A stretch of 32,000 nucleotides of DNA from Candidatus Micrarchaeum sp. Its GTDB lineage: Archaea > Micrarchaeota > Micrarchaeia > Micrarchaeales > Micrarchaeaceae. The position numbers and the translations under genes are program-made. This document shows, in pieces, positions 27,900-27,954 of the stretch (positions are counted from its first letter, which is position 1; the number at the start of each line of letters is the position of its first letter). Under the pieces are notes generated by a model that made no database searches, was not told the DNA's origin, and saw only the letters and a list, made by a program, of their open reading frames with translations. The stretch spans positions 1 through 32,000 of the forward strand of contig NZ_CP060530.1 in assembly GCF_016806735.1 (NCBI RefSeq). Direction: 5' to 3'.

Positions 27900-27954
27900 T
27901 TTGTGATGATACGAGGTATTTCTGACTCGTGATGAGAAGAGAGTCTGCTGAAAC
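27900..27954 (+). ncRNA. Archaeal box C/D sRNA (2'-O-methylation guide)
   Basis: The element layout is:
- C box GTGATGA, 27903-27909
- 12-nt spacer TACGAGGTATTT, 27910-27921
- D' box CTGA, 27922-27925
- 3-nt loop CTC
- C' box GTGATGA, 27929-27935
- 12-nt spacer GAAGAGAGTCTG, 27936-27947
- D box CTGA, 27948-27951

There is only a 2-bp terminal stem (TT/AA). The element starts 11 nt after the gltA stop codon. Confidence 0.85.

Follow-up and report, generated by a model that had tools for sequence, protein, structure and literature searches.

What does the short stretch of DNA behind the citrate synthase gene of a Candidatus Micrarchaeum genome encode, and, if it makes a guide RNA, to which sites is that RNA directed? 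The window analysed here, a contiguous stretch of 32,000 nucleotides, carries gltA at 26732-27892 on the + strand, ending in a TGA stop codon at 27890-27892, and a preliminary description drawn from the sequence alone had placed a box C/D sRNA directly downstream. Our comparisons make it very probable that the element encodes a functional archaeal sRNA of the box C/D type, with two guides and predicted targets in 23S rRNA, which is probably made as the 3′ tail of gltA and trimmed. The host gene was correctly named as citrate synthase, its 386-aa product matching TIGR01800 at 427 bits; the identical protein is found in four NCBI assemblies (Candidatus Micrarchaeum among them) and in several metagenomes. 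The gene is divergently paired with the aconitase gene acnA, as the two also lie side by side in Ca. M. harzensis A_DKE (gltA Micr_00026, acnA Micr_00025), and the remaining genes of the window are ordinary (SMC, a SUF operon, ProRS, proline dehydrogenase and others). From the citrate synthase matches and this gene order, the source is a Micrarchaeum-type archaeon of the DPANN group that lives in acid mine drainage.

The layout in the gltA 3′ flank follows the order C / 12 nt / D′ / CTC / C′ / 12 nt / D on the + strand at 27903-27951. Box C (GTGATGA, 27903-27909) is followed by the D′ guide TACGAGGTATTT (= UACGAGGUAUUU; 27910-27921) and box D′ (CTGA, 27922-27925); the 3-nt loop CTC of the k-loop (27926-27928) then leads to box C′ (GTGATGA, 27929-27935), the D guide GAAGAGAGTCTG (= GAAGAGAGUCUG; 27936-27947) and box D (CTGA, 27948-27951). 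All four boxes thus lie where the preliminary description had them, and its placement of the element just after the gltA stop also stands, with ten bases between the TGA and box C. Both guide spacers are exactly 12 nt, the published range for archaeal guides being 10-12 nt (PMC7994747), and the reverse strand contains no boxes. Two matches to the half-motif RTGATGA-N12-CTGA exist in the 32-kb window, both of them within this element, against an expectation of 0.04 from 100 shuffles, none of which contained two matches.

The boxes are enclosed by a terminal stem, a feature absent from the preliminary description, in which TTGCA-C-GTT (27893-27901, +) pairs with AAC-TGCAA (27952-27959, +) to give 8 bp with a 1-nt bulge. 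This stem is the sole structure in the centroid fold, and shuffled 3′ flanks reached equal pairing in only 3 of 2000 trials. T27902, which adjoins box C, is left unpaired, as expected for the bulge of a k-turn. From these boundaries the mature RNA is probably about 55-67 nt long and contained within 27893-27959 (+).

At the gathering score the element belongs to no Rfam family. The best match is to sR2 (RF01139), at 30.8 bits against a cut-off of 42 (E = 4.6e-5, local scan), followed by snoPyro_CD (RF00095; 26.3 bits against 45, E = 0.002, local scan) and sR20 (RF01140; 23.1 bits against 44), and in the permissive mode full-length matches to generic C/D models appear on the + strand only. Since these matches stem from the boxes only, the element is not a member of sR2, snoPyro_CD or sR20; the guide sequences are unrelated to those of the three families, which explains the scores below gathering.

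Evidence that the guides themselves matter comes from six further genomes (L007-L012), labelled Candidatus Micrarchaeota, Micrarchaeaceae or Mancarchaeum, in which the element sits in the same place, 10-11 nt past the gltA stop. Their citrate synthases are 94-96% (L007, L008 and L009) or 80-83% (L010, L011 and L012) identical to that of the window. Seven of seven genomes agree in all 24 guide nucleotides, in the two CTGA boxes (D′ and D) and in the cores of C and C′; variation is confined to the first base of C (G or A) and of C′ (G, A or T), the 3-nt loop (TCT or CTT in relatives) and the stem. Between these genomes the four-fold degenerate sites of gltA have diverged by 30-75%, and the invariance of the guides against this background therefore indicates strong purifying selection on them. 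The terminal stem of the relatives has 7-8 bp, though it is weaker in L012, and is maintained by compensatory substitutions (for example, GCA-C-GTT/AAC-TGC versus GGTCGTT/AACGACT). Downstream of the sRNA there is no visible likeness among the related loci, and the downstream neighbour changes. The preliminary description had named conservation of the boxes and of the 12-nt spacing in related genomes as a test, and both are conserved in all seven.

The element is absent from the corresponding position in two distant Micrarchaeota whose citrate synthases are 59-60% identical to that of the window (L013 and L014), in Thermoplasmata and behind a gltA 3′ fragment in L020, and viral contigs scanned for the sRNA gave no match. 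The fragment in L020, from a Micrarchaeaceae contig (10001-10402), matches residues 252-386 of citrate synthase only, at 82% identity, despite 10 kb of upstream flank, which may point to a true gene fragment, to rearrangement or to an artefact of assembly.

To which RNA might the guides pair? No rRNA gene is present in the window or in the first loci examined. We therefore started from the qPCR primers published for the 23S rRNA of Ca. M. harzensis A_DKE (PMC5468238, Table S9) and scanned metagenome contigs with a 19-mer of the reverse primer site, which yielded nine LSU rRNA contigs (full length in three cases, L028-L030; >2250 bits against LSU_rRNA_archaea); one further 19-mer match, L027, is not rRNA and was set aside as a chance hit. 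Protein-based look-ups added five 23S loci from other Micrarchaeota, bringing the set to 14 loci, all from metagenome contigs or genomes of related Micrarchaeota other than the window's own assembly. Four of the 23S contigs carry both A_DKE primer sites exactly, and the A_DKE amplicon covers both of the target sites described below. Look-ups with an approximately 800-aa protein that flanks 23S returned GCA_021810105, GCA_027343365, GCA_027330385 and GCA_021799635, and none of the four assemblies that contain the window's citrate synthase. The flanks of Micrarchaeota 23S genes (L028-L030, L033, L045, L046) hold, besides this Micrarchaeota-specific protein, CGI-121, an ERCC4-type nuclease and primase, with TnpB/IS605-type genes near 23S in some of them; no 16S motif was found in these six loci, so 16S and 23S appear to be unlinked.

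Both guides find a match in these 23S sequences with the correct N+5 geometry, rRNA being among the molecules that the preliminary description had suggested searching. Positions 2-11 of the D′ guide form 10 contiguous Watson-Crick pairs with 5′-AAUACCUCGU-3′, placing at N+5 an A aligned with E. coli position 1940, while positions 2-10 of the D guide form 9 contiguous pairs with 5′-GACUCUCUU-3′ in the 3′ strand of helix 69, placing at N+5 a C aligned with E. coli C1920; the D duplex has a U-U mismatch at N+2. The D′ site lies 20 nt downstream of the D site. Each duplex has a Watson-Crick pair at N+5 and is the best site for its guide in the 23S molecule. The alignment of the target region to E. 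coli 23S shows no length difference; C1920 opens the 3′ strand of helix 69, and 1940, an A in Micrarchaeota, falls at the helix 70/71 junction. Across Micrarchaeota 23S loci that are 86-96% identical overall, the D site is invariant in all 14 and the D′ site in 13 of the 14.

Runs of these lengths arise with shuffled guides in 17 of 3000 trials for D′ and 58 of 3000 for D; the D guide, whose duplex is only 9 bp, is purine-rich and of low complexity, so that on its own it is only modestly significant. Taken as a pair, shuffled guides both achieved a run of 9 bp or more once in 3000 trials, and in none of the 3000 did they do so within 100 nt of each other. The residues at N+5 of the real 23S targets are the same two for which the preliminary description had proposed methylation: the A of AAU[A]CC and the C of GA[C]UC. 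The full 12-mer targets it had written around them fared less well: a scan of metagenome contigs for both exact 12-mers, 25-55 nt apart, returned 0 hits, because the end positions of the guides are unpaired, with only 10 of the 12 positions of each guide pairing in 23S. In the structures of archaeal C/D RNPs no more than about 10 bp form with a 12-nt guide, which fits the unpaired end positions. Of two guesses taken from near-matches in E. coli rRNA, the one for the D′ guide (E. coli 1936-1947) proved right, and that for the D guide (E. coli 1986-1997) was ruled out by the A_DKE 23S sequence contained in the primers themselves and by real 23S. A 15-mer in L014 with the look of 23S peptidyl-transferase sequence turned out to be gltA coding sequence (QDNRLI) and not rRNA.

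With these pieces, the box C/D sRNA reading of the preliminary description gains support from the architecture, the stem, the purifying selection and rRNA targets that conform to the N+5 rule, and a working scheme can be drawn. Boxes C and D, brought together through the 8-bp terminal stem, would form a k-turn, and boxes C′ and D′ with the 3-nt loop would form a k-loop. L7Ae would bind to both, and Nop5 and fibrillarin would complete the particle. The D guide, paired to the 3′ strand of helix 69, would then direct fibrillarin to 2′-O-methylate the equivalent of C1920, and the D′ guide, paired 20 nt further downstream at the helix 70/71 junction, would direct methylation of the A at the equivalent of 1940. 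Such a location agrees with previous surveys, in which helices 68, 69 and 71, at the subunit interface, are hotspots of archaeal methylation (PMC4644070, PMC7994747) and dual guides mostly target sites less than 100 nt apart (PMC7994747).

The proteins that such a particle would need are recorded as follows. Motifs of fibrillarin, Nop5 and L7Ae were sought in 659 kb of loci without a match, and Pfam scans of the window proteins revealed no C/D RNP protein. A Nop5 homologue (PF01798) is annotated in Ca. M. harzensis A_DKE as Micr_00381; neither fibrillarin nor L7Ae was seen among the rows listed of the A_DKE annotation. In archaea, nop5 is usually paired with the fibrillarin gene. The neighbours of Micr_00381 are an unannotated 183-aa protein (Micr_00380) and GlyRS (PMC8975820, Supplementary Data S5), and, with no recognisable fibrillarin gene beside it, the usual nop5-fibrillarin pairing is not evident. 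Fibrillarin has been reported in >90% of archaeal taxa (PMC8481954).

Let us consider, however, what else the same element could be. The short length of the boxes and the Rfam scores below gathering could suggest that a few short motifs had come together by chance and without function, but the low half-motif expectation for the window speaks against such a constellation, and its conservation in spite of 30-75% four-fold divergence, together with the stem covariation and the rRNA targets, effectively refutes it; we regard its probability as negligible. A second thought is that the element acts in cis, as a k-turn in the gltA 3′ UTR on which L7Ae sets the 3′ end or the stability of the mRNA, the rRNA match being incidental. 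The element is indeed tied to the gltA stop in all seven genomes although the downstream neighbour differs, and binding of L7Ae to k-turns in mRNAs has been reported (PMC5539422). For such a purpose, though, boxes and stem would suffice, leaving unexplained both the 24 conserved guide nucleotides and the joint match to adjacent 23S sites, which no shuffled pair in 3000 reproduced, and we consider a purely cis-acting role very improbable.

A third proposal is that the RNA serves mainly as a chaperone of rRNA folding. In that role it would keep hold of the 3′ strand of helix 69 and of the helix 70/71 junction while the 50S subunit assembles, and methylation would be secondary or would not occur. 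The spacing of just 20 nt between the two binding sites would suit such a function, which has been proposed for dual guides (Dennis 2015, PMC4644070; PMC7994747). On the other hand, the Watson-Crick pairs at N+5 and the 12-nt spacers amount to a geometry tuned for methylation, and methylation of C1920 is predicted or proven for other archaea and for bacteria. One RNA could fill both roles, and it is as the main role, in place of guiding methylation, that we find the chaperone improbable.

If the element is a methylation guide, how is it made? The intergenic region between the divergent acnA and gltA genes (26593-26731, 139 nt) contains two TATA-like elements, AAATTTATAA at 26620-26629 and ATTAAATTT at 26697-26705 (+), each conserved in seven of seven loci. 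The latter lies ~30 nt upstream of the gltA start and is presumed to be the promoter of a precursor transcript that would contain both gltA and the sRNA. According to the preliminary description the sRNA has no TATA box of its own, and we likewise found no conserved TATA-like element upstream of it in the related loci, nor is there a T-run between gltA and the sRNA. The archaeal C/D genes described to date mostly lie directly beside ORFs or overlap them, and their RNAs are trimmed out of longer transcripts, maturation depending on the boxes and not on the flanks (PMC7994747). Because of the 10-nt gap, the lack of a conserved TATA-like element and this published pattern, we infer co-transcription with gltA as the likeliest route, in which the sRNA would be the 3′ tail of the gltA transcript and would subsequently be trimmed to the core protected by protein.

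An alternative route, with the sRNA starting at a separate promoter within the 3′ end of gltA instead of being processed from the gltA mRNA, deserves more weight than the alternatives considered above. Own promoters have been described for about 20% of archaeal C/D sRNA genes (PMC7994747), and one TATA-like motif, TTATTATAA at 27838-27846, does exist ~57-65 nt before box C, the sole such motif upstream of the sRNA. This motif, however, is gltA coding sequence (D-Y-Y-N-G), and in L009, L010 and L011, where the sRNA is intact, it is modified or lost through synonymous substitutions (CTACTATAA, TTACTACAA), while ATTAAATTT in front of gltA, by contrast, is conserved throughout. An independent promoter is thus rather unlikely, and processing from the gltA transcript is the route we prefer. 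Public RNA-seq data of the A_DKE co-culture exist under SAMN15702898 and SAMN15702859.

A more speculative extension of co-transcription would make the fixed position of the element functional in itself: the guide may be one of very few retained in this genome-reduced, host-dependent archaeon, its supply and with it the methylation of bridge B2a (helix 69) would follow gltA expression, and the sRNP could perhaps set as well as protect the 3′ end of the gltA mRNA. We mention this idea as a long shot.

The guide repertoire around this element appears to be sparse. In ~259 kb, comprising the window, L007-L014, L020, L021, L028-L030, L033, L037 and L041, a collection of partly orthologous loci as opposed to a genome-wide set, the gltA-linked element was the only canonical C/D sRNA that we found, and no other half-mer paired convincingly with 23S over 9 bp or more. 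The few other C/D-like hits have degenerate boxes, and at least one of them, at window position 25691, lies within the aconitase ORF. This hints that the guide repertoire of Micrarchaeota may be small, as in mesophiles.

The tRNA genes of the window give a further point of comparison with the preliminary description, which had counted three. Rfam finds two, and a third was not found even at E <= 0.05: tRNA-Gln (TTG) at 15717-15789 (-), detected by Rfam and ARAGORN, and tRNA-Trp (anticodon CCA) at 28824-28963 (-), detected by Rfam and missed by ARAGORN, with an intron of ~66 nt at position 37/38. The intron contains ATGATGA, 12 nt (TGATCTGGAAAG) and CAGA, an arrangement that would place C34 at N+5, and its 3′ half is identical in L007-L010. 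In euryarchaea the tRNA-Trp intron acts as a guide with C34 at N+5. Here a C/D reading of the intron is ambiguous, because the same pairing constitutes the ordinary anticodon-intron helix.

What does the element add to present knowledge? A full-text literature search returned no described C/D guide or RNP for Micrarchaeota and no mention of fibrillarin in them; a co-mention of ‘Micrarchae’ with L7Ae concerns Asgard ribosomal protein clusters. As far as this search shows, the element is the first concrete, testable methylation guide for Micrarchaeota, and it predicts two 23S modifications at the subunit interface, Cm at E. coli 1920 and Am at 1940. It is also a further conserved case of an sRNA located in the 3′ flank of a protein-coding gene, and should be of use in annotating Micrarchaeota genomes and in studying which rRNA modifications survive genome reduction. 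At the same time, that it is a canonical, ordinary member of a ubiquitous and well-known class of archaeal RNAs is well supported, and the understanding of C/D RNPs is left unchanged by it.

Among known systems, the element is most like the archaeal box C/D sRNAs of the Sulfolobus and Pyrococcus sets, with which it shares the C/D′/C′/D order, the 12-nt guides, the short D′-C′ loop, the terminal stem, a length of ~55 nt, dual guides to nearby rRNA sites and a gene that abuts the 3′ end of an ORF; unlike those sets, its host belongs to Micrarchaeota, a mesophilic and acidophilic DPANN lineage. In yeast, snR13 (Am2280/Am2281) and snR75 (Gm2288) act on what we take to be the same helix 70/71 junction sequence, AAAUGCCUCGUC; they presumably modify neighbours of the 1940 equivalent, with no sequence relationship to the Micrarchaeum guide. 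A precedent within genome-reduced DPANN is Nanoarchaeum equitans, with 26 C/D sRNAs, some of them from dicistronic transcripts (Randau 2012), though this organism is a hyperthermophile with many guides, compared with one canonical sRNA in about 259 kb of Micrarchaeota sequence.

The closest parallels in target choice are sR104 of Methanococcus maripaludis (Mma) and sR20 of Sulfolobus acidocaldarius (Sac), the D′ guides of which are predicted to target C2186 of the 23S alignment (Dennis 2015, PMC4644070, Additional file 1). This residue corresponds to E. coli C1920, since the same study equates A2178 with A1912 (PMC4644070). Mma sR104 is one of only seven sRNAs in the mesophile M. maripaludis, and G2206 (= E. 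coli 1940) is the predicted target of one further sRNA (PMC4644070). The same residue, C1920, is thus addressed by a D′ guide in Mma sR104 and Sac sR20 and by the D guide in Micrarchaeum, and the partner guides also diverge: the D guide of Sac sR20 is directed to U2222, that of Mma sR104 has no predicted target, and the partner guide in Micrarchaeum points to E. coli 1940. The guide cores, including the 9-mer AAGAGAGTC, are absent from the sRNA tables of Dennis 2015, so common descent with sR104 and sR20 is not shown. In bacteria the same predicted product, Cm1920 in helix 69 at bridge B2a, is made by TlyA and affects subunit association (PMC5778110). TlyA is a protein-only, site-specific enzyme, whereas in Micrarchaeum the specificity would be supplied by an RNA guide. 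These comparisons suggest that Cm1920 is installed by different means across the domains, through TlyA in bacteria and through C/D guides in M. maripaludis, Sulfolobus and Micrarchaeum. The likeness between TlyA and the Micrarchaeum guide is one of functional convergence, not of homology of the specificity element.
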